Below the pieces are notes generated by a model. That model was not told the DNA's origin. It did no database searches and saw nothing but the letters and a program-made list of their open reading frames with translations. The translations under genes were made by a program, and so were the position numbers. This document shows positions 10,998 through 62,946 of a DNA stretch of 64,000 nt, in pieces. Every line of letters begins with the position of its first letter. The stretch's first letter is position 1. The DNA lies in contig JANGFR010000002.1 of NCBI GenBank assembly GCA_024707015.1, positions 74,007 through 138,006 of the forward strand, in the 5' to 3' direction. Source of the DNA: Candidatus Culexarchaeum yellowstonense (GTDB taxonomy: Archaea > Thermoproteota > Methanomethylicia > Culexarchaeales > Culexarchaeaceae).

Positions 10998-11037
10998 AAA
11001 ACCACTGTAATATACTTTGAAGAGATTCGATATAAAC

Positions 11038-11346: not shown

Positions 11347-11400
11347 GACGCATCAAAATAAATATACATAAATTATATAATAAATGTCTCGGTGTAGGAT

Positions 11401-34905: not shown

Positions 34906-36345
34906 ATGTCAACGGAAAACATCATACTTATAAGAACAATTTTCGGAAGCCCAATAATAAGATTTCTATCAACACATGAGTATAATGGTAGATCACTATT
35001 AAACCATGCATTAACAATATACTCTGGGGAGGAGGAAGCAGGAAATTTAACTCTAAAAATAGCTTCATCAATAATCTCCGAAATTATAAGCTTAGGAGCA
35101 AAAGTAATGAAGGTAAATGAGGGGGAAGCTAAAAAGCTATTCAAGAATAAAGCGTTGAGGAGGGGGCTAGAAGTAATTTTGAGGAGCCTAGGGAAATATG
35201 GGGTAACTGTACCACAAAAGCTGGATTCACCATTCCTAGTGGTATGGAACTTCACAAACCTATGCAACCTTAAATGCAAACACTGCTACCAGAATGCATC
35301 ATCAATAATGGAGGGGGAATTGACACTCGAAGAGAAGATGGATGCATTGAGGCAACTGGAGGAGGCAGGGGTATCGGCAATAGCCTTCTCAGGGGGAGAA
35401 CCACTCATACACCCACACTTCTTCCAAGTGGCCAAGGAAGCTGTGAATAGAGGATTCTACACTGCAGTGGCAACCAATGGAACTACAATAACAGATGAAG
35501 CTGCAAAGAAGATGAGGGAGATTGGGATAAACTATGTTGAAGTAAGCTTAGACTCAGCAAACCCAGCTAAACATGATGAATTTAGAGGGGTTAATGGAGC
35601 ATGGAAGAAGGCTGTGGAGGGAATAAAGAATTGCGTGAAGAACGAGATATTCACTGGAATAGCTGTAACAGCCGTAAAGAGGAATTATGGGGAATGTAGG
35701 GAGATAATTAGTTTAGCAAGGGATTTAGGTGTAAAGAGGGTGATATTCTTCAATTTCATACCAGTGGGGAGGGGGGAATGGATAGTTAAGGAGGATTTAG
35801 ATCCATGGGAGAGGGAAGAATTCCTAACAATACTATATGAGGCAATGAAGGATTATGGTATAGAAGTCCTCTCCACAGCCCCTCAATATGCTAGAGTTGT
35901 AATTCAAAAGTCGCATGGAACATACGTAAGCCCAGTACACTTCTATACAGGTCCAGCAGTAGCTGGACTCAACTATTTGGCTGAATTCATCGGTGGATGT
36001 GGTGCTGGAAGAATATATTGTGCACTACAACCAAATGGAGATGTAACTCCATGCGTCTTCATACCAGACATAATCCTTGGAAACATTAGGGAGAAGAGGT
36101 TTAGGGATATATGGAATAATACGCCAATACTATCAGCCTTCCAAAGCAAAGACATTTTAAGGGAGAATTGCGGTAAATGTAGCTTTAGATATATTTGTGG
36201 TGGATGTAGAGCAAGGGCATACGCATACTTCAAAGACATATTAGCACCAGATCCAGGATGCATATACAACTCTGAACAATACGAGAACATCCTGAGGGAA
36301 ATGCATATAACCGTTGAAGGTAAAGTGAAGGTTCATGCAAATTAA
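34906..36345 (+). CDS. Radical SAM / SPASM-domain protein with a ~100-aa N-terminal extension
   Basis: CNLKCKHC is a Cx3Cx2C radical SAM motif, with GGEPL for SAM binding. The C-terminal Cys-rich SPASM-like region is CGAGRIYC...PC...CGKCSFRYICGGC. 479 aa. Confidence 0.8.
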   Translation: MSTENIILIRTIFGSPIIRFLSTHEYNGRSLLNHALTIYSGEEEAGNLTLKIASSIISEIISLGAKVMKVNEGEAKKLFKNKALRRGLEVILRSLGKYGVTVPQKLDSPFLVVWNFTNLCNLKCKHCYQNASSIMEGELTLEEKMDALRQLEEAGVSAIAFSGGEPLIHPHFFQVAKEAVNRGFYTAVATNGTTITDEAAKKMREIGINYVEVSLDSANPAKHDEFRGVNGAWKKAVEGIKNCVKNEIFTGIAVTAVKRNYGECREIISLARDLGVKRVIFFNFIPVGRGEWIVKEDLDPWEREEFLTILYEAMKDYGIEVLSTAPQYARVVIQKSHGTYVSPVHFYTGPAVAGLNYLAEFIGGCGAGRIYCALQPNGDVTPCVFIPDIILGNIREKRFRDIWNNTPILSAFQSKDILRENCGKCSFRYICGGCRARAYAYFKDILAPDPGCIYNSEQYENILREMHITVEGKVKVHAN

Positions 36346-37415
36346 ATTAACTTCATAACTGGAGCTTTCCCTAAGAAGCCTAAATCAGCAACATCACCAT
36401 AACCACCATCACTCAAAACAACCCTAATCCCATTAGGCCTATACTTAACACTTAAAGTTGAGTAAACGTCTAGGAGGAATCTGGTGAGGAGATCATCATC
36501 CATTCTTGGAAGAACAGCCATATCAAACCCTGCAACACAAATGGAGGAATATCGCAGTAGATCGTAAGCTGAAAGCTTACCCTCAAAACCCAATTGCATA
36601 AGCTTCGAATCCTCAGCATATGGAAGCATGAGTTCATTAAACCCAATGGAAGAAGGCTCCATTGAAGCAGCATGCCTCAAAACCCCATTAACATCATAAA
36701 TGGATTTCAAAGTTCCAACATCCCCAAACCTAACATTACCAAAAACCTCCAAGAGATCAACAACACTCTCATCCATCCATGGAGATATGGATAAATCCAA
36801 ACCCACCAATGGAAACTTGAAGTACTCAGCCAAATACGTTATAAACCCCTTAACACGCTTAACACAATCCAAAATGGTATTCAACATTGGAACACCATTA
36901 TTCAAACCCTCAATCAAAGTTTTAACATATAGTAGTGAAGCTGAAAGCATCGGACTACTTCCAGCGGAAGCCGATGGGAAATATGGCGTAATAATGTTTC
37001 CACCCACTGAAAATGAAACCTTCACGAAAGCCTCCAATGGAAGCTTCCTCCTAATAGTTATCAACAAATCCCTAAACACTCTAAGCTGATCCAAACCCCC
37101 ATACAAGGATATGAATAGCTTATCAAAATCCCCAAGCAAATCTGCAACATAATTCACATTTAGAGATGAATTACACATTAATGGAATTGCATAATAATTG
37201 AATGGCTCAGAAACATCATCTAAAAACTCCACTAATTCAGGCAGATTCCTAAAACTCTGCGGATCAACAGCCAACCTAAAAGTCCAAACATCCAAACCAA
37301 AACTTTTAGAAGCTTCACCAACAACATCCCGTACAAATCCGGAAATTGCAGAGAAATCCTTTAGAGATTTCGATGGAATGAGGAAAGTTAAACTCCTAAC
37401 CCTCAAACAAACCAC
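36342..37415 (-). CDS. Hypothetical protein
   Basis: 357 aa, soluble, no motif recognised. Convergent with the radical SAM gene and overlaps it by 4 nt. Confidence 0.4.
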   Translation of the reverse strand: MVCLRVRSLTFLIPSKSLKDFSAISGFVRDVVGEASKSFGLDVWTFRLAVDPQSFRNLPELVEFLDDVSEPFNYYAIPLMCNSSLNVNYVADLLGDFDKLFISLYGGLDQLRVFRDLLITIRRKLPLEAFVKVSFSVGGNIITPYFPSASAGSSPMLSASLLYVKTLIEGLNNGVPMLNTILDCVKRVKGFITYLAEYFKFPLVGLDLSISPWMDESVVDLLEVFGNVRFGDVGTLKSIYDVNGVLRHAASMEPSSIGFNELMLPYAEDSKLMQLGFEGKLSAYDLLRYSSICVAGFDMAVLPRMDDDLLTRFLLDVYSTLSVKYRPNGIRVVLSDGGYGDVADLGFLGKAPVMKLI

Positions 37416-38995: not shown

Positions 38996-39991
38996 TTAAA
39001 ATTCTTTTCCATGGTTAAGTATGTGTTTTAATTGTAATTTTATTTTCCATAAATCCATTAAAGCCATGTCTATTGTTGGATAGTTGTATATGGTTTCACC
39101 TGGAGACTCATTGTAGAATGGTCTATTGCAGTCTGGACACCCAGACGTTTTGAATGGTTCACCACTTTCAACAACCCTAGCCAATAGGGTTTTATCGATG
39201 TTTATTGCTTTAAGCCTCCCAGAATCATCAAATTCAAAGTTATCCATGTTTGCCATATTGTGTTTTATTAGGTAATGAGCTAACTGTACGGCTCTATATG
39301 ATGATATATCTGGTTTCGGATGATTTTCCATGGATGTACCCTCCATTGGTGTGAATGCGAATAGACCAACATTAATCTTAGACTCGTATAGTCTATTAAT
39401 CATGGATATGAATTCTTTATCGGATCCGCCTAAACCATAGATTAAGTGTATTGAAACCTTATATGGACCCATAATTTCCGCAGCCTTCAAAACCATATTC
39501 ATAGTTTTACTCCAAGAGAAAGTCTTCTTCACTTCCCTAAATACCATTTCAGATGCAGCATCAACCCCTATCCCAATCCTATCAACACCACAATTCTTTA
39601 AGAGGATAATATCATCAATACTTCTAGGATGTATTGAACCCGATATTGGCAGATTCGTGACTCTCCTTATACTTGAAACTATGTTTGCAGTATCTTCAAC
39701 GTATCCTTGGTATATTAGGGTTTGAATGCATATCCGTCTAAATCCATTAGCATGTTCAATTGCATTTAGAACATCATTGAATTTGAATTTTGGCCAAGTA
39801 ACTCTGGATAAGTATTCTGGGTCGGACTTGCTACCCATAGCTTGAGTACAAAATGCGCAATTAGCCATACACCTACCATCAGCAAAGGTCATGAGGTACG
39901 CTGTTGTGGGTTCAGCTAAAACCCTAATTCTCAGTAAACCCAGTTTAGCAGCGGTACCAATGGATACCCTAATATAATCCAGCAATACCAA
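38996..39991 (-). CDS. Radical SAM protein, BioB/LipS-like (candidate archaeal lipoyl synthase component)
   Basis: CMANCAFC is a Cx3Cx2C motif near the N-terminus, with a TIM-barrel-length body (331 aa) and extra C-terminal Cys (CPDC). Lies immediately upstream of an LplA C-terminal-domain gene with a 9-nt gap. Confidence 0.65.
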   Translation of the reverse strand: MVLLDYIRVSIGTAAKLGLLRIRVLAEPTTAYLMTFADGRCMANCAFCTQAMGSKSDPEYLSRVTWPKFKFNDVLNAIEHANGFRRICIQTLIYQGYVEDTANIVSSIRRVTNLPISGSIHPRSIDDIILLKNCGVDRIGIGVDAASEMVFREVKKTFSWSKTMNMVLKAAEIMGPYKVSIHLIYGLGGSDKEFISMINRLYESKINVGLFAFTPMEGTSMENHPKPDISSYRAVQLAHYLIKHNMANMDNFEFDDSGRLKAINIDKTLLARVVESGEPFKTSGCPDCNRPFYNESPGETIYNYPTIDMALMDLWKIKLQLKHILNHGKEF

Positions 39992-40000
39992 TGTACACCT

Positions 40001-40279
40001 CTACCCTTCAGGTTTAGCTGAAAGTATTGCATTAACAATATCTCTGGCAGTCATCATGGGAAACTCCACAGACCCCTCTGAGAGAAATTTTGAAATCCTC
40101 CCATCCAACTCAACAGCATCCAATTTTGCACCGACCAATGCATTCTCCAACCCTCTAATAGCATCCTCCGGATACATGAAGAAATCACCAGTAATCCTAA
40201 TACTTTTTATAATGCCATTATCAACCTCCATGGAAACTTTAATTAGTTTCGTAGCTTTATAAACTCCTTTAAACTTCAA
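40001..40279 (-). CDS. Lipoate-protein ligase A C-terminal domain protein (LplB-like, stand-alone)
   Basis: 92 aa. LIKVSMEVDNGIIKSIRITGDFFMYPEDAIRGLENALVGAKLD matches the LplA C-domain pattern (xGxIrvxvxVxdGxIxdIxisGDFfxxPxeaixxlEexLxG), as split out in archaeal LplA-N/LplA-C systems. Confidence 0.55.
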   Translation of the reverse strand: MKFKGVYKATKLIKVSMEVDNGIIKSIRITGDFFMYPEDAIRGLENALVGAKLDAVELDGRISKFLSEGSVEFPMMTARDIVNAILSAKPEG

Positions 40280-40324: not shown

Positions 40325-40786
40325 TCACAGTATGTTTAGATGGAAGGTTATTGGGACTGCTTCACCCCAAGATTGCCTTACTGGGCATATCCTTTGCGCC
40401 ATTTCAAAGCAGGAGTAAGCTTTCTCACGCTCCCACTTAGTATCCTTAAGCAACTTAACATTTATTGTGAAATCTATTTTCGTAAAAATTATCTTCTCCA
40501 AACCTTCCACACGCATGTTAACTTTGGCTATTGTCTCAAGGCTTTGTATACCGAGTTTTGAGTTACCCGCTATTAATAGGAAGAGGGTGTTCATACATGA
40601 AGCAAGAGCTGCTGCGAAGAGATTTTCCGGTGTGGGATACCCTCTCTCACCACCAAATTCCACAGGAGGACTTATCGTTGCAATCTCCCTATCATCAACA
40701 AAAACTTTTGATTTCACACCTGAGGATAATGCTGCTCTACCCTCGAAAACGAATTCACTCATAAAATGACAATAGTAATACTTCAA
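40325..40786 (-). CDS. osmC: OsmC/Ohr family peroxiredoxin-like protein
   Basis: GYPTPENLFAAALASCMNTLF contains the OsmC catalytic Cys-containing helix. The likely true start is the internal Met (MSEFVFEG). Confidence 0.8.
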   Translation of the reverse strand: MKYYYCHFMSEFVFEGRAALSSGVKSKVFVDDREIATISPPVEFGGERGYPTPENLFAAALASCMNTLFLLIAGNSKLGIQSLETIAKVNMRVEGLEKIIFTKIDFTINVKLLKDTKWEREKAYSCFEMAQRICPVRQSWGEAVPITFHLNIL

Positions 40787-40830
40787 TTTAAGTTTTACCC
40801 TTACAAAAATAAGGGGTATTGATATGGGAT

Positions 40831-41853
40831 TTATAATTCGAATGGATTCAACTCACCAGCAGATGTCAATGGACGTTTGGGATGCAAATACTTTGCTAGG
40901 AAACTGTAGACTTCTGCTCTAACTTCCCTTGCAAACAATGTGTCAATTCTATTGAAGGAGTGTCCTCCAGGAGCCTCCTTAAATATTTTATACTCAAACT
41001 CCTTGCCAGCGGCTTTAAGTGCATTTATAAGGTTTAAAACCTCAAGGTAGTTTACATCCTCATCATTGGTTGTCGTGTGAATTAATAGTGGAGTTTTAAG
41101 CCTATCAACATAGTGCACTGGAGATCTACGCCTATACTCCTCAACATCATCACAGACATCCACACCCACGTGATAATTGGCGATAAACAAGTCTCTATAA
41201 TTCTGCCCCTTATAGCCCATCCTCATTATCAAATCGCTAACGGGAACACCAGCATATGCAACCTTATAATCGTCTGGATAGAAGAATATGTTCATTAGAG
41301 TATGAAGTCCACCATGACTCCAACCAACAATCCCAATCCTATTGGGATCAACATACCTACAGTTTTCCACCATCCAATTCCTAGCTGCATGGGTATCCTC
41401 AATCTCCAATCCACCATAATCTATCAACTCATAGAAGGCTTTCCCATAACCAGTACTACCACGATACTCTGGAGCCACCACCAAGTATCCCTGAGCCAAC
41501 AACTCCCTAACAATATTCGCTGAAGCAGTACTCATATTCGCATGAACTCCACCATGAGGTAAGACTATCAATGGATACTTCTGACTTTTATCAAGATCCT
41601 TCGGTAGGAATACGTAACTCCAGAATATCACTGGATTCCTAGCCCCAGGAGCATTCGGCTTTTGAACCTTACTTGGAGGAGGACCAACCATCCTAAACTT
41701 AAATATCCTTGCAACATCCCCAAGCATATTATACCACAAAACATCGTCAATACGCTTATCCAAAGCCAAGAACATATGCATCAAAGATTCACGCATCTGC
41801 CTCAATTCTTCCAAAACCATCCTCAAATCCTCTGACATAACAATCAATACCAA
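40831..41853 (-). CDS. Alpha/beta hydrolase, prolyl-oligopeptidase (S9) / dienelactone-hydrolase-like
   Basis: GWSHGG nucleophile elbow (GxSxG) plus later Asp and His (PGGHSF). 340 aa. Confidence 0.75.
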   Translation of the reverse strand: MVLIVMSEDLRMVLEELRQMRESLMHMFLALDKRIDDVLWYNMLGDVARIFKFRMVGPPPSKVQKPNAPGARNPVIFWSYVFLPKDLDKSQKYPLIVLPHGGVHANMSTASANIVRELLAQGYLVVAPEYRGSTGYGKAFYELIDYGGLEIEDTHAARNWMVENCRYVDPNRIGIVGWSHGGLHTLMNIFFYPDDYKVAYAGVPVSDLIMRMGYKGQNYRDLFIANYHVGVDVCDDVEEYRRRSPVHYVDRLKTPLLIHTTTNDEDVNYLEVLNLINALKAAGKEFEYKIFKEAPGGHSFNRIDTLFAREVRAEVYSFLAKYLHPKRPLTSAGELNPFEL

Positions 41854-41929
41854 GTATAAGCAATAAACCTAAAAGCGTTTCTAAAAACATGAGGAAAAGT
41901 AATCAAGGAAATGATATATGAGTTTCCCG

Positions 41930-42583
41930 CTATTCTGGCTTTACGATTATTGGCATAGTTACGCTTCCACTATAGACTTTTACATGGAATCCAATGGTTA
42001 TGTATTTGAATTCGCTATACCATATTTCGGCATATGGGTTTATGATTACATGGACTGCATAGTCAATATGTGCATACAAAGTTTTTGGGAGGTAATCGCG
42101 ACCACGATGAATGTGATAAACGAAAATGGATTCGGATAAATTACCGGGGAAAGATTTATAATAAAGAAAGGAGGTGGTGGCATACCAGTCAATAGTGGTG
42201 TCATTGCGATAAGCGAATAAGTTGATCGCTTCAACCGTTACGATAAAGCCTTTTACTAATGGATTGTATGTTTTCTCATTTATCTTCTTTACTATAACGT
42301 TTATTTCATAAATGTCTCGTGGATTTATTGGGCTAAATATGGGTGTGGGGATGTATATGATTAATCCGAAATCAGCCTCCCCAAGAAAACCACTATAATG
42401 GATTATTGTGCTATTAAATTTTATACCTTTAAACCAGATTAGAGATCTATTGAAAGATTCTAACCCAATTGGGTTTAAGTGTTGTGGGCATGTGAAATAG
42501 TTTCCTAACAGAATAAACGCTAAGAGTATTGTTAAAAAGATTGTTATGCATTTTTTGTTTAGGTATTTCCTCATGATTATCAC
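41930..42583 (-). CDS. Hypothetical exported protein
   Basis: 217 aa. N-terminal signal/anchor (ITIFLTILLAFILLG). Aromatic-rich. Confidence 0.4.
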   Translation of the reverse strand: MIIMRKYLNKKCITIFLTILLAFILLGNYFTCPQHLNPIGLESFNRSLIWFKGIKFNSTIIHYSGFLGEADFGLIIYIPTPIFSPINPRDIYEINVIVKKINEKTYNPLVKGFIVTVEAINLFAYRNDTTIDWYATTSFLYYKSFPGNLSESIFVYHIHRGRDYLPKTLYAHIDYAVHVIINPYAEIWYSEFKYITIGFHVKVYSGSVTMPIIVKPE

Positions 42584-42691
42584 TTTATGAGGAAATGAGC
42601 GAGCCCACTATAAATATAATTTGGTAAAGCTATATATATATCGACGTATTAAGATTGCTCATCGTCGAGTTACCGTTTTTTGATGGTAGGT

Positions 42692-43057
42692 TTAGATTGG
42701 CATTGGAATTGTTGGTGTTATGAGTCGTGTTAGGCTGGAGAGGATGTAGGTTATTATTAGTATGAATAGGCTTCTGGACCAGCTTGATCTGTATATGAAT
42801 TTTATGATGGATAGGTATATTATGAGTTTTAGGATGTATGAGGCTTGGAATTGGTTGAATGATGATATTATTGAGTTCATTAGCATGATCATTGTGGAGG
42901 AGGCTATGGCTAGGGGGAGGCTTTTGAGTCCGACTATTTTGGAGCTTAAGTATATGATTATGGTTAATAGGATGAAGCTTATTGTTAGATAGGGTAGGGA
43001 TTGTAGGATTGATGTTGGGTCGTAATTGGTTGCAGTTGTTATGTTAAGATTTGTCAT
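42692..43057 (-). CDS. Small integral membrane subunit, last gene of the membrane-bound hydrogenase operon (possible Mrp/MbhA-G-like or NuoK/J-like piece)
   Basis: 121 aa with about 3 TM helices. Overlaps the upstream NuoI-like gene by 14 nt. Confidence 0.4.
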   Translation of the reverse strand: MTNLNITTATNYDPTSILQSLPYLTISFILLTIIIYLSSKIVGLKSLPLAIASSTMIMLMNSIISSFNQFQASYILKLIIYLSIIKFIYRSSWSRSLFILIITYILSSLTRLITPTIPMPI

Positions 43058-43616
43058 ATAGGACGTGCTTCCTTGTGTGGATATTTAGTTTGAAGCTTAG
43101 GGTTTTTCTGCAATTTGGGCATAGGTGTAGGTATTTTGGTAGATCTTCTTGGGCGTATTGTATGGCTTTAGCCTCCTTTAATCCACTCATTAACCTATCG
43201 GTGATGCGGTTAAGTTGCTTTTCTGGTGCAAAGTAGTTTCCGCAGTTAATGCATTTTGAAAGTTCAATTGTGTTTGAAACTTTGAGTTCCGATTTATTGT
43301 TTGATGCTATTTCGAATTTAGTGGTTAAGGTTAATGCATCTTCAGGGCATACTTCGGCGCAACGCCTACAAAACACACACTTATTCAAATTAATGTTTAA
43401 ATTACGTTTACCCTCCGCGTCTATGTATGTTAATGCACCGCTACTACATTGGCTAACGCATGCACTGCACCCAATACATTTATCTGCATTGAATTCGGGC
43501 ATACCGCGCAGAGTTTCTGGAACACTACTATACTTCTCAACGCCAACACCAGCAGGATACTTAATTGTGTATGGTTTACTTAGAGCTTCAATGGCTCTCT
43601 TAAATGATTTGAGCAA
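43044..43616 (-). CDS. 2x[4Fe-4S] ferredoxin subunit of a group-4 hydrogenase (NuoI/EchF/MbhN-like)
   Basis: CIGCSACVSQC...CP and CVFCRRCAEVCP are two CxxCxxCxxxCP motifs. A C-terminal Cys-rich tail includes CINCGNYF. 190 aa. Confidence 0.8.
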   Translation of the reverse strand: MLKSFKRAIEALSKPYTIKYPAGVGVEKYSSVPETLRGMPEFNADKCIGCSACVSQCSSGALTYIDAEGKRNLNINLNKCVFCRRCAEVCPEDALTLTTKFEIASNNKSELKVSNTIELSKCINCGNYFAPEKQLNRITDRLMSGLKEAKAIQYAQEDLPKYLHLCPNCRKTLSFKLNIHTRKHVLYDKS

Positions 43617-43617
43617 T

Positions 43618-44628
43618 TCATGCCACCCCCAAAATAAACCTGATGATTATGGAGAATATTATGGAGAATGCGGATAAGGGCCATAGGTACTTGATGGCCC
43701 ATGAGACTGCTTGATCAATTCTAAATCTTGGGGCTATTGAGTGAACTATGGATATTATGAGTGTGACTATGAAGCACTCCAATAGGAAGACTATGAAGTT
43801 GAATATTTGATTGTATATGCTTGTTGGTGGCAGTATAAGTCCCCCTGAAAGGAATAGGTTTACAAACAATCCGATGAGGACTGATGTTAGAATGTATTTT
43901 GAGGATAATATTGTTGCTAGAAGTTTTCCGGAGTATTCTGTGTATGGACCTGAAACTATCTCCACATCAGCTTCAGGTATTTCGAATGGGTTGAAGTGCA
44001 GTTTCCCAAGTACTGCAATTATGAAAACTATGGCTGCGAAGGGGTTTAGAAGGATTATTGGATAGGATTTCAGCTGAAAACTCATGATGCCGCCAATCGA
44101 TAATGAATTGGATATTATGGCTGAAGAGAATATTGATGAGAGCAATGAAACTTCAATTACAAGCATCAGCTCAGCCTCCCTCCTAGATCCAACAACACTC
44201 CAAGGTGATGATGATGCCAAACCACCCAAAACCCAGAATAGGGATACACCAATTAAAATGTATGTTATGAAGATTATGCTGAGCGGATTATCTGCAAGCA
44301 AGCTTAAACCACCATAAGATATAAAGTATGTGGATAAAACTGCCAGGATGAAGCTTACTATTGGTGATGAAACAAATAAACCTTTACGTGCACTTCTAGG
44401 TATAATCGTCTCCTTAAACATCAATTTCAAAACATCGTAGAGGGGTTGTAAAACCCTACTTGAACCTAAAAGCCCCCTCAACTCACCATGCATTGAAAGT
44501 AGTGGTCCAAGCCTATACTGACTCCTAGCATAAACCTTCCTAATCTCATAATTGAACAAGACTCCAAGGATGAAGCATAACACTGGAATAAATATTATTG
44601 CTAGGAGCACAACCATCACCCCCTCCAA
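43618..44628 (-). CDS. Membrane subunit of a group-4 hydrogenase (NuoH/EchB/HycD/MbhM-like)
   Basis: 336 aa with about 8 TM helices. N-terminal RKVYARSQYRLGPLL resembles the NuoH R-x-GPxxxG loop. Overlaps the large-subunit gene by 13 nt. Confidence 0.75.
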   Translation of the reverse strand: MEGVMVVLLAIIFIPVLCFILGVLFNYEIRKVYARSQYRLGPLLSMHGELRGLLGSSRVLQPLYDVLKLMFKETIIPRSARKGLFVSSPIVSFILAVLSTYFISYGGLSLLADNPLSIIFITYILIGVSLFWVLGGLASSSPWSVVGSRREAELMLVIEVSLLSSIFSSAIISNSLSIGGIMSFQLKSYPIILLNPFAAIVFIIAVLGKLHFNPFEIPEADVEIVSGPYTEYSGKLLATILSSKYILTSVLIGLFVNLFLSGGLILPPTSIYNQIFNFIVFLLECFIVTLIISIVHSIAPRFRIDQAVSWAIKYLWPLSAFSIIFSIIIRFILGVA

Positions 44629-46247
44629 CCCTTAAATGCTAGATTCTTAAATTCATCACCACTCAAAGTCCACTGCTCCCCCCTCTTGGAATCAACTATC
44701 ATTACACGATCTGTGCATGAGAAGCATGGGTCAACGCTACCAATAATTATTGGTGCATCTGCAAGTCTACAACCTTTAAGCATGAATTTGAGGGCTGCAA
44801 TATTACGGTAACTTGGAGTTCTAATCCTAACAGTGTGCGGTATATCCATACCATTCGAAATTACGTAGTAGACTAGTTCACCCCTAGGAGCTTCAACCTT
44901 ACTTAAAGCTTCACCCTCAGGGAATGGTTTAAGTTCTGAAGTAGCTACTGGTCCACCAATACTCTTCAACCTATCAACACATTGTAGACATATATCTATG
45001 GATACAAGGGTTTCCTTAACTCTAACCATAACCCTTGAAAGTACATCCCCAGCCTCCTCAACCACAACATCCCAACTTATATGCCCCTCATCATAGAATG
45101 AGTATGGACTATCCCTTCTAACATCAATCTTCCATCCACTAGCCCTAGCAGTTGGCCCTACAGCTCCAGCCTCCCTAGCATCACTTAGAGACATGACACC
45201 TACACCCTCAGTCCTACGCCTAACAATGCTATGTGAAGCTATATCTTCAGCTAGTTTTTTGAAATCCCTCTTAACTTCAAGCAGTTTACTTTCAACTTTA
45301 CTAAGCTGCTCCTTAGTGACATCGAATCTTACGCCGCCAATACTCATGGAATCTGCATGAACCCTATTGCCCGATAGCAATTCAATGCAATCCTGTATTG
45401 GCTCCCTAATCTTCCAAGCCCACATGAGCAAAGTTTTAAAGCCAATCAAGTCTCCTGCAACGCCAAGCCATAGGAGGTGACTATGTATCCTATTCAACTC
45501 AGCCATTAAAACCCTAATATACTCAGCCCTCTCAGGGACATTTACCCCAAGAATGCGTTCCACAGCATTCACGAAAGCCAATTGATGCGGAACACTACAT
45601 ATACCACATATCCTACCAACAAGGAATAGGTCACGCCAAAAAGTCCTACTCTCAGCCAACTTCATTATCCCACGATGATTCAAACCAACCTTAATATCCA
45701 CATCAACAACATCTTCACCATCAACGAATAACTTGAAGAATCCACCTTCAAGCATTGCCGGATGATATGGACCTATGGGTAGAGTGACTTGCTTAACCCC
45801 AGCCTTAGATTCACTGGAACTCTCAACTGGGTTAGGCCACTCAAAGGGGAGGAAGATGTGTCTAGGGTCGGGGTGACCATCAAACTCAACTCCAAGGAGC
45901 TCCATAGTCTCCCTCTCAGCCCAATTAGCTTGATAAGTCAATTGTGCAACTGATGGAAACTTCGCTGGTTCACCATCACCATAAGCATACAATATTACAT
46001 GGGCATGTCTATCTATGTGTTCAAGACTGTAGATGTGCATGAGCCTAATACCATCAAAACCCATGTCTGAAGCTGTGACATGGACAATTCTAGAGCCTAT
46101 GGAAAGCATGTATTTAGCTGCATCCAGAAGCCTATTTGGACTGGTCTTAACACGTACATGCTTACCTCCACAACCATAACCAGTAATTTCAAAATCGGGT
46201 TTAAGGATGTTTCCAAGCTCATTTAAAACATCATTTAAACTCTTCAT
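44616..46247 (-). CDS. [NiFe] hydrogenase large subunit, group 4, fused NuoC-like + NuoD-like (HycE/EchE/MbhL-type)
   Basis: N-terminal NuoC-like domain (about 150 aa), then RICGICSVPH (RxCGxCx3H Ni/Fe-binding motif L1) and C-terminal DPCFSCTDR (DPCxxCxxR/H motif L2). All four metal-ligand Cys are present. 543 aa. Confidence 0.85.
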   Translation of the reverse strand: MKSLNDVLNELGNILKPDFEITGYGCGGKHVRVKTSPNRLLDAAKYMLSIGSRIVHVTASDMGFDGIRLMHIYSLEHIDRHAHVILYAYGDGEPAKFPSVAQLTYQANWAERETMELLGVEFDGHPDPRHIFLPFEWPNPVESSSESKAGVKQVTLPIGPYHPAMLEGGFFKLFVDGEDVVDVDIKVGLNHRGIMKLAESRTFWRDLFLVGRICGICSVPHQLAFVNAVERILGVNVPERAEYIRVLMAELNRIHSHLLWLGVAGDLIGFKTLLMWAWKIREPIQDCIELLSGNRVHADSMSIGGVRFDVTKEQLSKVESKLLEVKRDFKKLAEDIASHSIVRRRTEGVGVMSLSDAREAGAVGPTARASGWKIDVRRDSPYSFYDEGHISWDVVVEEAGDVLSRVMVRVKETLVSIDICLQCVDRLKSIGGPVATSELKPFPEGEALSKVEAPRGELVYYVISNGMDIPHTVRIRTPSYRNIAALKFMLKGCRLADAPIIIGSVDPCFSCTDRVMIVDSKRGEQWTLSGDEFKNLAFKGWRG

Positions 46248-46253
46248 CCCAGA

Positions 46254-47777
46254 TCACCATAAATCCATAAATTTAAACATAACATCATTATGGAGGGATA
46301 CTCCATAGGCTAGAAAGCCATGATACATTATACCAATTATAATTGATATTAAAGCTAAGAGGATTATGGAGGTAAACATTAAATCTGGTTTCTCCCTAAA
46401 AACGCCACTACCCCTAGCTGAAGCCACAACTATTCCGAGGAAAACACATAAAACTATTATACCACTGAGATATATTAAACCCTCATATATTGAGCTTGGA
46501 ATACCATAAAACTGATTGCCAGAATAAATGATTGATTCCATCACCATATGCTTACCATAATAACCTGAGAAGAATGGAAGTAAACCTGAAACGCTCATCC
46601 CACCTAAAATAATGATGAGTGAAGTGATGGGCATAGACCTAGTTGCCATTGAAAGTTTAAGCCAATTCCTCTCATGGAAAACCTTCACATACAAACCTGC
46701 AGATAGGAAGAGGAGTGCCTTAGCAATTGAATGTGCAAATAGGTATAATGCTGATCCAAAAATGCATAGATATGCTTCATAACCACTCATGGAAACACTT
46801 AAACCAATTGATGAACCTAGGAACCCCATACTCAAAATGCTACTGAAGGCTATAACCCTCTTAATATCCCTATCAATTATCATCCCCAACACTCCAAGGA
46901 CAATATTAATTAAACCTGAAAGGGTTATGAAAGCCCCCACATCCATTGAAATTATTGGTGAAAGTGAATAAACGTATTTCAATATTGGGATATATGCAGA
47001 CTCTATTATTACACCTGAAAGCATTGCACTAACTGGTGAAGGTGCTTCCGAGTGAACTAATGGGAGCCATAGGAGTGCAAGTGGAGATGTGCCAGCCTTA
47101 ATTCCAAAACCTAAAAGGATTAGGTAGGAGGCAAATTTGAAATTCCAATCATAAATCCCATATCTACTCAACCTATAAACATCCAGTAGATCGAAGTGTA
47201 AACCATAACCATTGATGAGGAGGCATACCCCAATTATTATTAGAATAGACTCTAAAATCGACATGGCCAAGTATACTATAACTGAAATAACAGCTCTACC
47301 CCTACGTTCACCATACAAAACTAGAATTGCACTCAGAGCTGTGGAAGCTTCAAGAAAAAATAGCATGTAAATCAAATTGCTAGATGACACCAGCCCAATT
47401 AGTGTCGCTAATAGAATTGGTATAATTGCAAAGTACAATCTAAATCTACCATTCAATTCAGAATCGAAATATTTGATTGAGTATAATGTTGATATTAAAC
47501 CAACAATCAATATAACCTCACACATAGCATAAATAAGGAAATCCGTAAACAATTTTGATTCCAGCTCAGCTAACCCAGCTGCTAATATTCCTGCTAATGG
47601 TATGGCGTTAACAATTAATGAGGAGAATATCAATAATGTGGAGAGGTGTATGGAATATTTTGATTTAAATGCTGAAATTATTAGCGATGATAAGAATAGA
47701 AGTGCATATGTCAATATGAGGTTAATGCTCACCCTTCTCATCCTCCATGAATGGTAGATTAAATATGTAGATTTCAT
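46254..47777 (-). CDS. NuoL/M/N-type (Mrp antiporter-like) membrane subunit of the hydrogenase (EchA/HyfB/MbhH-like)
   Basis: 507 aa with about 14 TM helices and conserved antiporter-like charged residues in the membrane. The start is possibly the internal Met (MRRVSINLIL). Confidence 0.75.
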   Translation of the reverse strand: MKSTYLIYHSWRMRRVSINLILTYALLFLSSLIISAFKSKYSIHLSTLLIFSSLIVNAIPLAGILAAGLAELESKLFTDFLIYAMCEVILIVGLISTLYSIKYFDSELNGRFRLYFAIIPILLATLIGLVSSSNLIYMLFFLEASTALSAILVLYGERRGRAVISVIVYLAMSILESILIIIGVCLLINGYGLHFDLLDVYRLSRYGIYDWNFKFASYLILLGFGIKAGTSPLALLWLPLVHSEAPSPVSAMLSGVIIESAYIPILKYVYSLSPIISMDVGAFITLSGLINIVLGVLGMIIDRDIKRVIAFSSILSMGFLGSSIGLSVSMSGYEAYLCIFGSALYLFAHSIAKALLFLSAGLYVKVFHERNWLKLSMATRSMPITSLIIILGGMSVSGLLPFFSGYYGKHMVMESIIYSGNQFYGIPSSIYEGLIYLSGIIVLCVFLGIVVASARGSGVFREKPDLMFTSIILLALISIIIGIMYHGFLAYGVSLHNDVMFKFMDLW

Positions 47778-48015
47778 CCATATGGATGTATGGAGGTTTA
47801 GCTAAACCACACATGAAAACTGAATCCAAATCTACATTACGTGATTGAAGCCATGGAATTAAAACTATGAATGTCAAATAGAATATTGAAGTTGAAGCTA
47901 ACTCAACTAGGAATAATGTTAGAATGATATCTGATGTTAAGGGTACAATCCAAAATCCAATGGCCAACAATCCTAACGATATTATTAGGGGGATGTACAT
48001 GTACTTCAACTTCAT
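47722..48015 (-). CDS. Small membrane protein within the hydrogenase operon
   Basis: 97 aa with 2-3 TM helices. Overlaps the NuoB-like gene by 4 nt and its 3' end overlaps the annotated start of the NuoL-like ORF. Confidence 0.35.
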   Translation of the reverse strand: MKLKYMYIPLIISLGLLAIGFWIVPLTSDIILTLFLVELASTSIFYLTFIVLIPWLQSRNVDLDSVFMCGLAKPPYIHMDEIYIFNLPFMEDEKGEH

Positions 48016-48464
48016 TTAACCACCCCACACCTCTCACGTAGGATGCTTATTGCCTTAACAACACCATTTATTATGGCTTCAGGTTTTGGTGGGCATCCAG
48101 ATACAAAGACATCCACTGGGATAACCTTATCTGCTCCACCAAGGATTGCATAAGTTTCTTCACCCTCAACATCATTGAATATTCCACCAGAACAGGCACA
48201 TGAGCCTATGGCGACAACAACCTTTGGGTTTGGAACTTGCATATAAACTCTCTTCATGAATGATGCAATATGCTTTGTAACTGGACCTGTAACTATTAGG
48301 ATGTCTGCATGCCTTGGAGATGTAACCAATTTAATCCCAAATCTCTCAACATCAAATCTTGGGGTTAATGCTGCAACAAGTTCAATGTCGCATCCATTAC
48401 ATCCACCAGCATGTAAATGGTAAACCCATGGTGAATATGTGAACATCTTCTGTTTAAACCCCAT
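48012..48464 (-). CDS. [NiFe] hydrogenase small subunit, group 4 (NuoB/EchC/MbhJ-like)
   Basis: Cys ligands for the proximal [4Fe-4S] in GGCNGCDIE, GSCACSGG and C-P (SGCPPKP). 150 aa. Its start codon abuts the stop of the upstream HdrB-like gene. Confidence 0.85.
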   Translation of the reverse strand: MGFKQKMFTYSPWVYHLHAGGCNGCDIELVAALTPRFDVERFGIKLVTSPRHADILIVTGPVTKHIASFMKRVYMQVPNPKVVVAIGSCACSGGIFNDVEGEETYAILGGADKVIPVDVFVSGCPPKPEAIINGVVKAISILRERCGVVK

Positions 48465-49328
48465 TTAACCCACCAACCTACCAATTATATTTTCAGTTGA
48501 AATTGCATGTGTATTTAAGCCGAAACTTTCTGGCTTAATTCCAAAACTTAAAGCTAAGAGTTCACTTAAATGTAACACTGGAATCCCATATTCTAATCCT
48601 TCATCTTTGAATGTCAATTGGGCTTTCTCAAATTGATCGTAGCATGCTGGGCATGCAACTACAATTGCATTTGCACCTGAATTCTTTATGGCATCAAGCT
48701 TCCACTTAGTCCTCTCCCTCATAGCCTTATCCACCGAGTATAGCATTAATGGGTATCCACAGCAAACACGCTCCAAACCATAATCAACGATCTCAACATT
48801 CAAAGCCTTCACAATTTCCCTAAGATACTTGGCGCCCCTCTCATCACTCATCTTATATAATTTGCATCCTGGGTGAAGTGCAACTTTAAGCCAACTTAAA
48901 TCCACATTAACATTGCTTCTAATAGCATTTAAACCAACATCTTCAAACAATACTTCAGTATAATGTTTAACTTTAATAGTCCCATTAAATTTCAATCCAA
49001 ACCCCTTAAGATTCCCATTAATCTTCTCCCTCAAATCACTTGACTCAATAAGCTTCTCCCTAGCTTCATGCAGAGACTCCCAACACCCATTACACATCAC
49101 AATTATATCCCTCCCAATAGCTTCAGCTAAGGATAGGTTTCTAGCAGCCACAGTTAACCATAAATCTTCATCTACAAGTCTAGCTATTTCTGGAACTGGG
49201 CAGCATGAAGCTCCATTTATATCGAGGAGGTTGATTCCAAGTTTACTGGATATGGCTCTCATGGATGATTCAGCAAATGGCTGCATTGCAGGTATATAGC
49301 ATCCTAGGAATAGACTGTATTCAAGCAT
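48465..49328 (-). CDS. CCG-domain (Cys-rich) protein, HdrB/HdrD-C/GlpC/Sulfolobus-SdhC-like
   Basis: Two Cys-rich repeats: C...CCP...CNGC and C...CCG...CPAC (287 aa). The first has CCP instead of CCG. Confidence 0.75.
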   Translation of the reverse strand: MLEYSLFLGCYIPAMQPFAESSMRAISSKLGINLLDINGASCCPVPEIARLVDEDLWLTVAARNLSLAEAIGRDIIVMCNGCWESLHEAREKLIESSDLREKINGNLKGFGLKFNGTIKVKHYTEVLFEDVGLNAIRSNVNVDLSWLKVALHPGCKLYKMSDERGAKYLREIVKALNVEIVDYGLERVCCGYPLMLYSVDKAMRERTKWKLDAIKNSGANAIVVACPACYDQFEKAQLTFKDEGLEYGIPVLHLSELLALSFGIKPESFGLNTHAISTENIIGRLVG

Positions 49329-49343
49329 ATGGATACCTCCAAC

Positions 49344-49622
49344 CTAATATTTGAAATCCCTCCTATCAAAGTCAAATCCAATCCTTCTACCAGCACCAAT
49401 CGATTTAATGAGATTGAACATTTGATTCACATATTCAGTGTTGCTATATGCTGTTGGGGGTATGCTTGGCAAACCAATCCTACTCCTAGTCCTCTGCATA
49501 TATCTAGAAAGCATTGGAACATGACCAGTTCTAAGTATACTCCTAATTGGAGATTTAAGTGAATCCTGCAATCCCACAATATCCTTCCTTAATGGGTGAA
49601 TTTTACCTTCGCTGGAGCTCAT
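49344..49622 (-). CDS. Small basic protein of unknown function inside the Hdr/hydrogenase operon
   Basis: 92 aa, Cys-free, Arg-rich. Overlaps the upstream polyferredoxin gene by 4 nt and has a 15-nt gap to the downstream gene. Confidence 0.3.
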   Translation of the reverse strand: MSSSEGKIHPLRKDIVGLQDSLKSPIRSILRTGHVPMLSRYMQRTRSRIGLPSIPPTAYSNTEYVNQMFNLIKSIGAGRRIGFDFDRRDFKY

Positions 49623-50104
49623 GATCTCACCCTCTCCAAAACCTCCCTCCTAGGTAATACTTGAAGTGCACCAGTACTACAATACTTTGCACATAGAAAT
49701 TCACCTTTACATGCATCGCATTTAACGCTAACCCTCAACCTCTCATCGAAAAAAGGTATTGAGATGGGGCATGCATAATTACAGCTTCTACAACCAATAC
49801 ATAGAGCTGGATTTATGAGTACAAATCCTGTTACAGTATCCTTACTTATAGCTTTAGGTTCCACTGGACATGCAGCCATACAAAATGGGTCTTGACAATG
49901 ACTGCAGTAGTTGTTTATGAAGAGTGGATTCCCCTCAGGGTTCAATGCCACCATCAAGTATGCCTTCGAAATATCAATTACCCCATAATGCTTGTATGAG
50001 CAAACCTCCATGCAATATAGGCATCCTGAACATTTATTTGGATCGTAGAAGAGCACTTTCTGTTCCTCTAAATTCAAGGTGCATGCCCCACAACAATTTT
50101 TCAC
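49619..50104 (-). CDS. Polyferredoxin, 4x[4Fe-4S] (HycB/DmsB/HdrC-like electron-transfer subunit)
   Basis: Four CxxCxxCx3C-type motifs: CSGCLYCMEVC, CSHCQDPFCMAACP, CIGCRSCNYACP and CDACKGEFLCAKYC. 161 aa. Confidence 0.8.
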   Translation of the reverse strand: MKNCCGACTLNLEEQKVLFYDPNKCSGCLYCMEVCSYKHYGVIDISKAYLMVALNPEGNPLFINNYCSHCQDPFCMAACPVEPKAISKDTVTGFVLINPALCIGCRSCNYACPISIPFFDERLRVSVKCDACKGEFLCAKYCSTGALQVLPRREVLERVRS

Positions 50105-50502
50105 TGCTGATACTTAGAGTACTCCTCGGCAGTTAAAAGTTCATCCTTCTCCTCTTCCCACTTTGTTGGTTGAATTATAACTAGCCATCCAGCTCCATAT
50201 GGATCTGCATTAACAAGTGATGGCTGCTTTAAAACCCTCTCATTAACCTGCTTTATAACACCACTAACTGGGGATATAAGGTCGCTGGTGGCTTTAGTGG
50301 ACTCTATAACTCCGAATGGCTCGTACTGTGAAACTGTTGTGCCAACATTCTCTAATCTAATTCTCCTAACGGTCTTCAGCATCTTTTGTGCATAATCTGT
50401 TATCCCAACCCTAACGGTTCCATCGGGCAGAAGTTCAGCCCATGTATGGTCTGGAATGTAATATATGCCTTCACGCAAAACATAACTCTTACTCATACCC
50501 AC
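50101..50502 (-). CDS. Glycine-cleavage H-protein-like lipoyl-carrier protein (GcvH/LbpA-like)
   Basis: HTWAEL...VRVGITDYAQKML...ESTKATSDLISPVSGVI...NADPYGAGW reproduces the GcvH fold motifs (HxW, GITDxAQ, ESVKAxSDxxxPxSG, NxDPYGxGW), with the lipoyl-Lys in ESTKA. 133 aa. No gcvT or gcvP nearby. Confidence 0.75.
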   Translation of the reverse strand: MGMSKSYVLREGIYYIPDHTWAELLPDGTVRVGITDYAQKMLKTVRRIRLENVGTTVSQYEPFGVIESTKATSDLISPVSGVIKQVNERVLKQPSLVNADPYGAGWLVIIQPTKWEEEKDELLTAEEYSKYQQ

Positions 50503-50593
50503 ACACCTGGCAAAATAAGATTATACTTGATTTCTTAAATAGTTTACCATAAGCCAGCAAAGTGAAATATAGGTTGATTTAAAAAAATGTGGT

Positions 50594-52270: not shown

Positions 52271-52273
52271 AAC

Positions 52274-52981
52274 CTATCCCTCCGGACTTTCAATATCCCT
52301 ACTATCATACAACTTCTTCAGTTCAGCAGAGCTCATTTTAACCAGCTTATCAAGTTCCATATCAAATTTCCCCTCCTCTATCTCCTTAACCCTAATTTCA
52401 AGATGCTTGGCTTTTGGAGCCATATATTTGCCATAGAGCCTCCTAACCAACTGAAATACGTGATAATGGATTATTTCAGCTGGACATCTAATGCTACATA
52501 ATCCACATGAAATGCAGTCAAAGCATAACTCAGCGGCTTTGGCTATATCCCCCCTCTTAATCATCTGTATTGCATCCATAACCTGCAATTCCTGTGGGCA
52601 TGCCTTAGTACAAGAATTGCATGCAACACATCTAGCTACTTCGGGATATAATGCCAATACATTTGCACCTGTAGGCTTTAACTCCTCAATATTATACTTA
52701 ACCTTCTCCGCTGGTGCAAAGGGTATTTGAACAAGGTACATTCCATCTTGAACTGTTGTTTGGCATGCTAGAGCTGTGTAGAGCCTATAATCCCCCTTAA
52801 GCCTATATATCGTTGCACATGCACCGCAGAATCCACCCCTACAACCAGCACCCCTAATATACTGGTATCCAGCATACTCAACAGCCTTCATTATAGTTAT
52901 CCCAGCAGGAACTTCATACTCCTTACCCATAATGTATATTTTCACGGTCCTCTTAGGTTCAGTTTGACCCGCCATGTTCAT
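52274..52981 (-). CDS. Iron-sulfur subunit, SdhB/FrdB-like (2Fe-2S plus 2x[4Fe-4S]-type Cys clusters)
   Basis: Plant-ferredoxin-like CRGGFCGAC...C, then CVACNSCTKACP and CFDCISCGLCSIRCP. 235 aa. Overlaps the downstream HdrB gene by 4 nt. Confidence 0.75.
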   Translation of the reverse strand: MNMAGQTEPKRTVKIYIMGKEYEVPAGITIMKAVEYAGYQYIRGAGCRGGFCGACATIYRLKGDYRLYTALACQTTVQDGMYLVQIPFAPAEKVKYNIEELKPTGANVLALYPEVARCVACNSCTKACPQELQVMDAIQMIKRGDIAKAAELCFDCISCGLCSIRCPAEIIHYHVFQLVRRLYGKYMAPKAKHLEIRVKEIEEGKFDMELDKLVKMSSAELKKLYDSRDIESPEG

Positions 52982-53832: not shown

Positions 53833-53838
53833 CCACGA

Positions 53839-54210
53839 TCACCCCGTAAGCTTCCTTGAAGCTGATATCAGAGCTATTTGAGGTAAATCCCCAAGCCCCT
53901 TAACCCTCCTCAAATCCACTGGATAAATGTTTTTACGTTGAACAATGGTTCTAAGGACATTTATCATTCTAGCTGGATCTATATCCCTCGGACACCTAAC
54001 ACTACAAGTATTACATGAAGCACAAACCCAAATGGTCTTGCAATTCAAAACCTCAGGCATATCGAGTTGAATCATCCTTATAACTTGATGTGGAGGAACA
54101 TCCATATCCTTAATCATTGGACAGCTACCACTACAAATACCACATTGAATACATAGGTATGGATTCTTCCCACTCAACTCATAAACAGTTTGAGGTAAAC
54201 CTCTAAACAT
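53839..54210 (-). CDS. hdrC: Heterodisulfide reductase subunit C (2x[4Fe-4S])
   Basis: CIQCGICSGSCP and CASCNTCSVRCP with the HdrC-type C-terminal extension. 123 aa. Confidence 0.8.
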   Translation of the reverse strand: MFRGLPQTVYELSGKNPYLCIQCGICSGSCPMIKDMDVPPHQVIRMIQLDMPEVLNCKTIWVCASCNTCSVRCPRDIDPARMINVLRTIVQRKNIYPVDLRRVKGLGDLPQIALISASRKLTG

Positions 54211-54221
54211 GACTACACCCC

Positions 54222-62942: not shown

Positions 62943-62946
62943 AACC

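Follow-up and report, generated by a model that had tools for sequence, protein, structure and literature searches.

An lplB-lipS2 gene pair near the Ehe hydrogenase cluster of Candidatus Culexarchaeum yellowstonense, a probable half of the archaeal lipoate-assembly pathway

The stretch of 64,000 nucleotides analysed here (Candidatus (Ca.) Culexarchaeum yellowstonense, contig JANGFR010000002.1, positions 74,007 to 138,006; hereafter the window) encodes on its minus strand two adjacent proteins of lipoate metabolism: LplB, the accessory subunit of a two-part lipoate-protein ligase, and LipS2, a radical S-adenosylmethionine (SAM) lipoyl synthase subunit. Judged from sequence and gene order, we put the probability at about 80% that this pair is half of the four-gene archaeal pathway in which lipoate is assembled directly on its carrier protein. 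The four-gene array would have been broken in this lineage, and the most likely client would be EheJ, the GcvH-type carrier of the nearby Ehe [NiFe]-hydrogenase cluster. The pair consists of:

40001..40279, minus strand: lplB, 92 aa, TTG start; small accessory subunit (C-terminal domain) of LplAB, the archaeal lipoate/octanoate-protein ligase made up of two parts
39992..40000, minus strand: spacer between lplB and lipS2, 9 nt, sequence read directly
38996..39991, minus strand: lipS2, 331 aa, TTG start; radical SAM lipoyl synthase subunit, predicted by analogy to attach the first sulfur to C8 of octanoyl-lysine

Identity and layout of the gene pair

Both open reading frames (ORFs) and their 9-nt spacing are as the original prediction had described them. 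Their order is reversed: The 92-aa gene had been placed downstream, which holds in plus-strand coordinates only, whereas on the coding strand lplB is located 5' of lipS2. From the lplB stop to the lipS2 start, the spacer with its flanking codons reads TAG AGGTGTACA TTG. Within it lies (G)AGGTG, a Shine-Dalgarno-like sequence that overlaps with the stop codon of lplB. The lplB TTG itself is preceded by GGTG at a distance of 7 nt, and a T5 run and TATA-like AT-rich boxes are found ahead of lplB at distances that fit no clear archaeal promoter or terminator model. In the version of the metagenome gene caller, lplB is shorter (76 aa). The 92-aa start appears to be the better choice because the orthologues of two Culexmicrobium loci (L003 and L004) begin with ATG at the same MKFK position and because the alignment with Thermoplasma LplB already begins at residue 6. 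TTG starts are common among the longest-ORF calls in the window (lplB, lipS2, an OsmC-like gene, an S9 peptidase gene and many more), and the gene caller picked later starts for OsmC (145 vs 153 aa) and the S9 peptidase (335 vs 340 aa) as well.

That the 92-aa ORF encodes a stand-alone LplB was borne out by two profiles. It reaches 69.4 bits (cutoff 65, E 2.2e-19) with NCBIfam NF053749 LplB, where residues 7-88 cover positions 3-85 of the 86-position model, and 39.3 bits (cutoff 24) with Pfam PF10437 Lip_prot_lig_C. The ORF is bounded by stops and not fused to a catalytic LplA domain. In addition, residues 6-84 align to residues 11-87 of 91 in chain C of PDB entry 3R07, LplB from Thermoplasma acidophilum (E 1.7e-10). 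Both systems have a stand-alone protein of about 90 aa, that of the window being homologous to chain C along almost its whole length, and probably also a separate catalytic LplA of 250-270 aa without the C-terminal domain, but in the Culexarchaeum-like genome lplA and lplB would be at separate loci. T. acidophilum obtains lipoate by scavenging and possesses no lipoyl synthase (Tanabe et al., 2023, PMC10332631). Here, the pairing of the ligase with LipS1 and LipS2 would imply that octanoate is ligated and sulfur inserted afterwards. LplB of Ca. Culexarchaeum nevadense is 91% identical to that of the window, and the ORF is intact in L084 (71% identity) and L004 (49%). The ratio of nonsynonymous to synonymous substitution rates (dN/dS) between the window and C. 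nevadense is 0.11 for lplB, so that lplB is a maintained coding gene, and 0.16 for lipS2. Both genes are under purifying selection.

The radical SAM protein had been suggested to be LipS-like, and it is LipS2: It scores 365.2 bits (cutoff 270, E 2.6e-109) with NCBIfam NF053743 LipS2, but only 47.3 bits with the biotin synthase model BioB (TIGR00433, cutoff 225) and 19.7 bits with NCBIfam LipS1 (cutoff 230). The predicted CMANCAFC is its CX3CX2C motif (residues 41-48; C41, C45 and C48), one of only two such motifs among the window ORFs of at least 80 aa. Together with C88, C285 and C288, these cysteines are invariant across 28 aligned homologues. They correspond, with a like spacing pattern, to C39/C43/C46 and the auxiliary-cluster ligands C85/C276/C279 of Thermococcus kodakarensis LipS2. 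The closest named relative is C. nevadense GBS-70-058 with 84-85% identity, followed by L084, an NCBI "Methanomethylicia archaeon" metagenome-assembled genome (MAG) with the same synteny (64%), and Culexmicrobium (52-54%). These identities assign the window to a Culexarchaeum-like archaeon within the Culexarchaeia (Thermoproteota). A PDB search returned no LipS2 structure; the nearest solved proteins are biotin synthases with weak scores.

In T. kodakarensis, LipS2 accepts only octanoyl-lysine and attaches sulfur at C8, while LipS1 accepts only the 8-mercapto intermediate and adds the C6 sulfur; the cluster ligands of LipS2 were identified by mutagenesis (Neti et al., 2022, PMC9585515). LipS2 of the window shares with this protein the curated family, the CX3CX2C motif, three auxiliary-cluster cysteines, a similar length and a past annotation as biotin synthase. 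Non-adjacent lipS1 and lipS2 genes are apparently also common to both organisms. It differs in that identity to a Pyrococcus homologue amounts to about 46% and that lipS2 has a hydrogenase/Hdr cluster beside it, its translation being probably coupled to that of lplB. Both proteins of the window are members of curated, biochemically characterized families, and their pathway, ligase plus LipS1/S2, has been established for archaea as well as bacteria (Tanabe et al., 2023, PMC10332631). Since the enzymes are already known, no new chemistry is revealed here.

As the original prediction had stated, no gene for the LplA catalytic domain is present in the window; neither LplA nor LipS1 was found in its 64 kb by phmmer and tblastn with the Culexmicrobium proteins or by a scan with hidden Markov models (HMMs). 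The window sequence corresponds to contig k141_278192 (397.5 kb) of ENA sample ERZ27247226. With Culexmicrobium LplA as query, a 269-aa LplA (P0133) was located in the same sample on contig k141_333507 (1.0 Mb). It matches Pfam LplA-B_cat and BPL_LplA_LipB and reaches 271 bits with NF053750 (cutoff 480). Only 12 nt after lplA follows a gene for a 293-aa radical SAM protein whose sole NCBIfam match is LipS1 and which displays the motifs CGLKCKFC, GCM and FCC, as does T. kodakarensis LipS1. The tetranucleotide composition of this locus correlates with that of the window at 0.963, compared to 0.97-0.99 for the quarters of the window and 0.943 for the congeneric C. nevadense locus (L002). A JGI sample contains another lplA-lipS1 pair (L083), with identities of 94% and 89% to the pair on k141_333507; this divergence mirrors that between the window and C. 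nevadense (LplB 91%, LipS2 84%). From these data we infer that the lplA-lipS1 pair belongs to the genome of the window.

The Ehe cluster and the broken array

A GcvH-like carrier in an Hdr cluster had been noted about 10 kb from the gene pair, and a GcvH is indeed encoded inside an Hdr/hydrogenase cluster at a distance of 9.8 kb. The surrounding cluster is the Ehe complex described in Culexarchaeia, which includes the GcvH protein EheJ, the SdhA-like EheK and HdrA2B2C2 (Kohtz et al., 2022, PMC9723716). Across 43044-56612, the coding order on the minus strand begins with HdrA2-MvhD, has gcvH in the middle and ends with the NuoI-like gene. Assignments are based on Pfam and NCBIfam matches:

54222-56612, minus strand: HdrA2-MvhD fusion; 969.9 bits with HdrA2 NF040770, below the cutoff of 1100
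53839-54210, minus strand: HdrC2-like protein
52978-53832, minus strand: HdrB2-like protein
52274-52981, minus strand: 4Fe-4S protein
50594-52270, minus strand: TfrA/SdhA-like flavoprotein
50101..50502, minus strand: GcvH-type lipoyl carrier (EheJ); 120.7 bits with Pfam GCV_H, 134.2 bits with NCBIfam PRK01202 (cutoff 117)
49619-50104, minus strand: 4Fe-4S dicluster protein, between the HdrB-like gene and gcvH
49344-49622, minus strand: 92-aa ORF that matches no family, likewise between gcvH and the HdrB-like gene
43044..49328, minus strand: membrane-bound Ehe group 4 [NiFe]-hydrogenase module with NuoI-like, NuoH-like and NuoCD/large subunits, an Mrp/NuoLMN-like antiporter, a 97-aa ORF, a NuoB-like subunit and an HdrB-like CCG protein
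42692-43057 and 41930-42583, minus strand: two membrane proteins without family match
40831-41853, minus strand: S9 peptidase
40325-40786, minus strand: OsmC-like protein

The last four co-directional genes (40325..43057), which separate Ehe from lplB, are probably not part of the system. Between 19 and 34 kb only housekeeping genes (NadA/NadC, deoxyhypusine synthase, peptidases, SSB) and no Hdr cluster are found. EheJ has kept the lipoyl-lysine motif, with ESTKATSD aligned to ESVKATSD in the pea H-protein (1HPC) and ESTKSVSD in mycobacterial GcvH (3IFT). In the window, LipS2 and EheJ are 15 genes apart, exactly as in MAG Ga0272449, whose published table numbers the two on contig 1000032 as gene 128 (named 'bioB', = LipS2) and gene 143 (EheJ) and places the single lplA on contig 1000035 (PMC9723716).

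The connection between the gene pair and the Hdr-embedded GcvH goes beyond mere proximity. Among about 85 LipS2 loci, lplB is found directly 5' of lipS2 only in seven Culexarchaeia-like ones. In six genomes (the window, L002, L084, L003, L004 and L005; LipS2 52-85% identical), lplB-lipS2 follows the NuoI-like gene of Ehe. The orthologous lplB and lipS2 genes abut or overlap, with a gap of 0 nt in L004 and overlaps of 14 nt in L003 and 23 nt in L005. In these three loci, lplB begins 32-38 nt after the NuoI-like gene, and the gene set from OsmC to the membrane proteins is absent. In the two Culexmicrobium loci L003 and L004 all four assembly genes abut in the order NuoI-like, lplB, lipS2, lplA, lipS1, and L004 comprises 14 co-directional genes from gcvH to lipS1 with gaps of -44 to +32 nt. 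By its gene spacing, the L004 array looks like a single operon with the carrier first and its assembly enzymes last. In L005 and L085, lipS2 and lplA are separated by two or three inserted genes, and in L084, L002 and the window, lplA-lipS1 has disappeared from the position 3' of lipS2. The insert between Ehe and lplB comprises 2.8 kb in the window, 5.3 kb in L002 and about 1 kb in L084. As far as gene order can tell, the window appears to contain the retained half of a broken ancestral array, the break having occurred between lipS2 and lplA. A single break in the middle of lplB-lipS2/lplA-lipS1 explains why each half has one ligase subunit and one synthase subunit.

The insertion zone between Ehe and lplB varies even within the genus: In C. 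nevadense (L002, 4554-7659) between the Ehe cluster and the S9 peptidase gene, a gene pair occurs there twice in tandem (268/273 aa and 212/213 aa; products with signal-peptide-like N-termini), while the window has one 217-aa homologue (41930-42583).

The proposed pathway follows the characterized systems. LplB would pair with the catalytic LplA, and the heterodimer would activate free octanoate (or lipoate) with ATP and transfer the acyl group onto the conserved lysine of a GcvH-type carrier. LipS2, which has two [4Fe-4S] clusters, the radical SAM cluster and an auxiliary one that is sacrificed, would then insert sulfur at C8 of the octanoyl chain before LipS1 places the second one at C6. The partners lplA and lipS1 would be provided by the adjacent pair elsewhere in the Culexarchaeum-like genome. 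Ancestrally, gcvH, the Ehe hydrogenase/HdrB genes and lplB-lipS2-lplA-lipS1 would have formed one co-directional array, which is intact in Culexmicrobium; in the lineage of the window, it would have broken between lipS2 and lplA, and unrelated genes would have entered between Ehe and lplB.

Several points weigh against this interpretation. LplB clears its NCBIfam cutoff narrowly (69.4 vs 65 bits), and LipS1 on k141_333507 remains with 205.5 bits under the cutoff of 230, which its Culexmicrobium orthologue passes (242.6 bits). The placement of lplA-lipS1 in the same genome draws on sample identity, composition and the orthology pattern. In the genus of the window, 2.8 kb (L002: 5.3 kb) of unrelated genes separate Ehe from lplB; these inserted genes and the T-rich stretch before lplB make co-transcription with Ehe doubtful in the window. 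Conserved synteny inside one class may in part be inherited rather than selected. Furthermore, nothing Ehe-like is found in the more distant relative L085 within the 2.7 kb available upstream.

Clients of the enzymes and alternative explanations

The original prediction had proposed a maturation route dedicated to the Hdr-embedded carrier, possibly with a second ligase set. This is not supported by the gene tables published for ten Culexarchaeia MAGs (PMC9723716). In their accessible part, lplA occurs once in six of the ten MAGs, twice in one and not at all in three, while two gcvH genes, one of them beside gcvT, are listed for nine of the ten. A lipoyl synthase entry was not seen there, nor is a second, system-specific set of ligase and synthase evident. 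As far as listed, Culexmicrobium cathedralense has its only lplA (gene 174) next to LipS2 (gene 173) on contig 1000004, 11-12 genes from EheJ (gene 162), and its second gcvH beside gcvT on another contig (PMC9723716). Most likely, judging from these gene inventories, one LplAB-LipS1/S2 set serves both EheJ and the GcvH of glycine cleavage; since it is apparently the only such set, the glycine-cleavage GcvH is probably among its clients. That the Ehe-embedded EheJ would most likely be lipoylated by these enzymes follows from the ancestral array that joins gcvH-Ehe to lplB-lipS2-lplA-lipS1. Thus, the linkage of the assembly genes to Ehe suggests that EheJ is really lipoylated.

The most serious competing explanation, which we consider possible but on balance doubtful, is that the four genes provide lipoylation as a general housekeeping function and really serve the glycine cleavage system, and that proximity to Ehe is inherited gene order without function. 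It would account for the single lplA and the canonical gcvH-gcvT pair elsewhere that the published tables give for most MAGs. In the genus of the window, unrelated genes have come to lie between Ehe and lplB, and the relocation of lplA-lipS1 has caused no apparent harm. In Hadarchaeota (L064, Hadarchaeum) the same four genes, ordered lplB-lplA-lipS1-lipS2, are located next to gcvH and putative gcvP, i.e. glycine cleavage genes. Yet the junction between Ehe and lplB-lipS2 has been kept down to 52% LipS2 identity, whereas gene content varies on the opposite side. The Ehe array of Culexmicrobium continues into the four genes with no gap above 32 nt, and the glycine-cleavage genes are encoded on another contig. 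Moreover, Ehe encodes its own carrier with an intact lipoyl-lysine. These observations favour EheJ as a client.

In two loci, L064 (7970-13682) and L046, gcvH follows immediately after lplB-lplA-lipS1-lipS2; in L064, genes that resemble gcvPA and gcvPB by appearance only come next, in contrast to the attachment to Ehe in Culexarchaeia.

Could the coupling of lplB to lipS2 instead reflect a direct partnership of the two proteins, for instance the hand-over of the octanoylated carrier, beyond the role of LplB with LplA? A gene lplB that directly precedes lipS2 and abuts or overlaps it is present in 7/7 Culexarchaeia-like loci and in 0 of about 78 other LipS2 loci, and after the cluster had split, lplB remained with lipS2 and not with lplA. 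This pairing is accounted for by one break in the middle of lplB-lipS2-lplA-lipS1 and needs no new function. In addition, other gene orders occur elsewhere, e.g. lplB-lplA-lipS1-lipS2 or lipS2-lplA-lplB-lipS1. A direct partnership is, therefore, improbable.

Even less probable is that the stand-alone LplB is a non-functional, decaying remnant left by the move or loss of lplA, as the 64-kb window without lplA, the ORF shortened to 76 aa by the gene caller and the TTG start might suggest. The dN/dS of 0.11 against C. nevadense, the intact ORF in L084 and L004, the full-length HMM match, the Shine-Dalgarno-like GGTG and the lplA gene in the same sample all contradict it, and the functional lplA and lplB genes of T. 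kodakarensis are likewise unclustered.

Finally, the reading of the radical SAM protein as biotin synthase BioB is prompted by the name of many database homologues, by the closest solved structures, by the tabulation of the orthologues as bioB (K01012/COG2516) in the Culexarchaeia tables (PMC9723716) and by a biotin-dependent carboxylase and a biotinyl carrier encoded in the window, but it is effectively refuted by the model scores (BioB 47.3 bits, cutoff 225; LipS2 365.2 bits, cutoff 270), by the auxiliary-cluster cysteine triad, which is that of T. kodakarensis LipS2, itself once annotated as biotin synthase (PMC9585515), and by lplB, lplA and lipS1, which flank the gene in relatives. BioB and LipS2 belong to the same radical SAM megacluster, are comparable in length, and either of them introduces one sulfur, beginning with the terminal carbon; here, however, the auxiliary-cluster ligands are of the LipS2 type and the neighbourhood is related to lipoate and not to biotin. 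What the published reconstruction of Culexarchaeia calls 'bioB' is LipS2. It follows that lipoate synthesis exists, and the predicted synthesis of biotin in this class has to be revisited.

The LipS2 orthologues listed under biotin in Supplementary File 3 of Kohtz et al. (2022) include Ga0272449_1000032128, Ga0197143_10032422 and Ga0190363_1000004173. On the minus strand at 61536-63489, the window encodes a carboxyltransferase resembling pyruvate carboxylase subunit B/oxaloacetate decarboxylase alpha (468 aa, 699 bits), followed by a 180-aa biotinyl carrier with the biotin-attachment motif ESMKME. This means, a biotin-dependent enzyme is encoded in an organism whose annotated 'bioB' is LipS2.

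Relation to sHdr-LbpA and further observations

The original prediction had drawn an analogy to LbpA in sHdr organisms. The neighbouring genes do not fit an sHdr/LbpA system of sulfur oxidation, as they encode the Ehe hydrogenase with an HdrA2B2C2-type module. No sHdrC1B1AHC2B2-type gene set lies beside the carrier; its neighbours are HdrA2-MvhD, HdrB2C2-like proteins, the TfrA-like flavoprotein and the group 4 [NiFe]-hydrogenase. Among the scanned ORFs of the cluster, in which small ORFs were not systematically searched, none encodes DsrE, TusA or rhodanese. The lip genes described here have four enzyme families in common with the typical archaeal cluster and with the bacterial sHdr-LbpA cluster lipS1-slpl(AB)-lipT-lipS2 (PMC10332631); as in sHdr organisms, they adjoin an Hdr-type complex with a GcvH-like lipoyl carrier of its own. 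The order lplB-lipS2-lplA-lipS1, which is split in this genus, differs both from the bacterial cluster and from the typical archaeal order lipS2-lplA-lplB-lipS1 (Tanabe et al., 2023, PMC10332631). The accessible part of the supplementary arrangement table in the same paper gives lipS1-lplB-lplA-lipS2 for Methanomethylicia proper, and no Culexarchaeia entry was seen in it. Further differences from sHdr-LbpA concern the ligase, which here has two unfused parts, lipT, which was not seen, and the carrier, which here scores as GcvH. The complex is composed of a [NiFe]-hydrogenase, an HdrA2B2C2-type module and a TfrA-like flavoprotein, and the organism is an anaerobe that is not predicted to oxidize sulfur.

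For EheJ, a role as disulfide carrier for the HdrB-like subunits was proposed as a possibility because Culexarchaeia lack the biosynthesis of coenzyme M (CoM) and coenzyme B (CoB); in this hypothesis, the GcvH of Ehe bears a lipoyl disulfide as substrate of HdrB-like subunits in organisms without CoM/CoB (Kohtz et al., 2022, PMC9723716). The same work leaves the lipoate assembly genes unconnected to Ehe and files lplA under glycine cleavage. The attachment of four assembly genes to Ehe, operon-like in Culexmicrobium, provides independent genomic support for this earlier hypothesis. Only tentatively, and with the odds rather against it, a wider scheme can be sketched in which the Ehe/HdrA2B2C2/TfrA-like cluster would use lipoyl-EheJ as thiol/disulfide redox carrier instead of CoM-S-S-CoB, and in which the LplAB-LipS1/S2 genes would ancestrally have been part of the same operon for the maturation of EheJ. 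If this were true, the cluster would be an anaerobic, non-sulfur-oxidizing counterpart of the bacterial sHdr-LbpA-LipS1/S2 supercluster and possibly its evolutionary relative or source.

In the literature search, neither the conserved attachment of lipoate-assembly genes to Ehe, nor the split into two mixed ligase/synthase pairs in Culexarchaeum, nor the identity of the Culexarchaeia 'bioB' as LipS2 was apparently stated, and for an archaeal lipoate-binding protein combined with Hdr and LipS1 only papers on sulfur oxidizers were found. The novelty of these three points is useful, but incremental. They illustrate that a pathway of four genes can come apart into two mixed pairs of a ligase subunit and a synthase subunit; annotation pipelines geared to clustered genes would overlook such a split.

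A similar theme may exist more widely. In about a dozen Bathyarchaeia loci (L009, L010, L013, L020, L022, L029, L030, L042, L051, L058, L067 and L074), an HdrA-MvhD-like gene (~810-1016 aa, 626-751 bits to HdrA2 of the window) is located within 2-5 kb of lipS2, with lipS1 also close. In L029 and L067, gcvH lies between this gene and the lipS genes. These gene neighbourhoods hint at an association of lipS with HdrA-MvhD-like genes and gcvH beyond Culexarchaeia, and the association of lipS with Hdr-type flavoproteins may be recurrent outside sulfur oxidizers. Some of the 1.4-kb 'LipS1' calls in Bathyarchaeia loci are probably artefacts: On iteration, the LipS1 HMM also collected LipS2 and radical SAM proteins in general.

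In the assignment by best score among first-round HMMs, the 'LipS1' candidate of the window at 34906-36345 (plus strand) is a false positive. NCBIfam groups this 479-aa radical SAM/SPASM protein with NirJ/AhbD-type enzymes; it is nearest to NirJ2/AhbD (heme b synthase) with 261/250 bits against a cutoff of 500, has an N-terminal extension of about 110 aa and is the only other CX3CX2C protein of the window. The position of its gene relative to that of a DUF711 protein is conserved in L001, and the gene is absent in L084. The DUF711 protein (357 aa; 36342-37415, minus strand) aligns with just the C-terminal 160 of the 413 positions in the Pfam model, and its own N-terminal 190 residues are without a match; this gene adjoining lipS2 is conserved in L084.

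Two further neighbours concern the cluster and the partner genes. For the TfrA-like flavoprotein, the best NCBIfam match is thiol:fumarate reductase subunit A (320 bits, below the cutoff), and at 48465-52270 (minus strand) gcvH is flanked by genes for this flavoprotein and for HdrB-like CCG proteins. The arrangement resembles the thiol:fumarate reductase of methanogens with a lipoyl protein replacing CoM/CoB, and by this analogy a role as dihydrolipoyl-GcvH:fumarate reductase is conceivable. On the 1.0-Mb contig, lplA-lipS1 is followed by genes for a 269-aa protein with weak similarity (42 bits) to the N-terminal region of GlmS-type glutamine amidotransferase (L082, 9955-10764) and for a 337-aa radical SAM/SPASM protein (10782-11795). 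A putative glutamine amidotransferase, LipX, is mentioned for bacterial lip clusters (Tanabe et al., 2023, PMC10332631).

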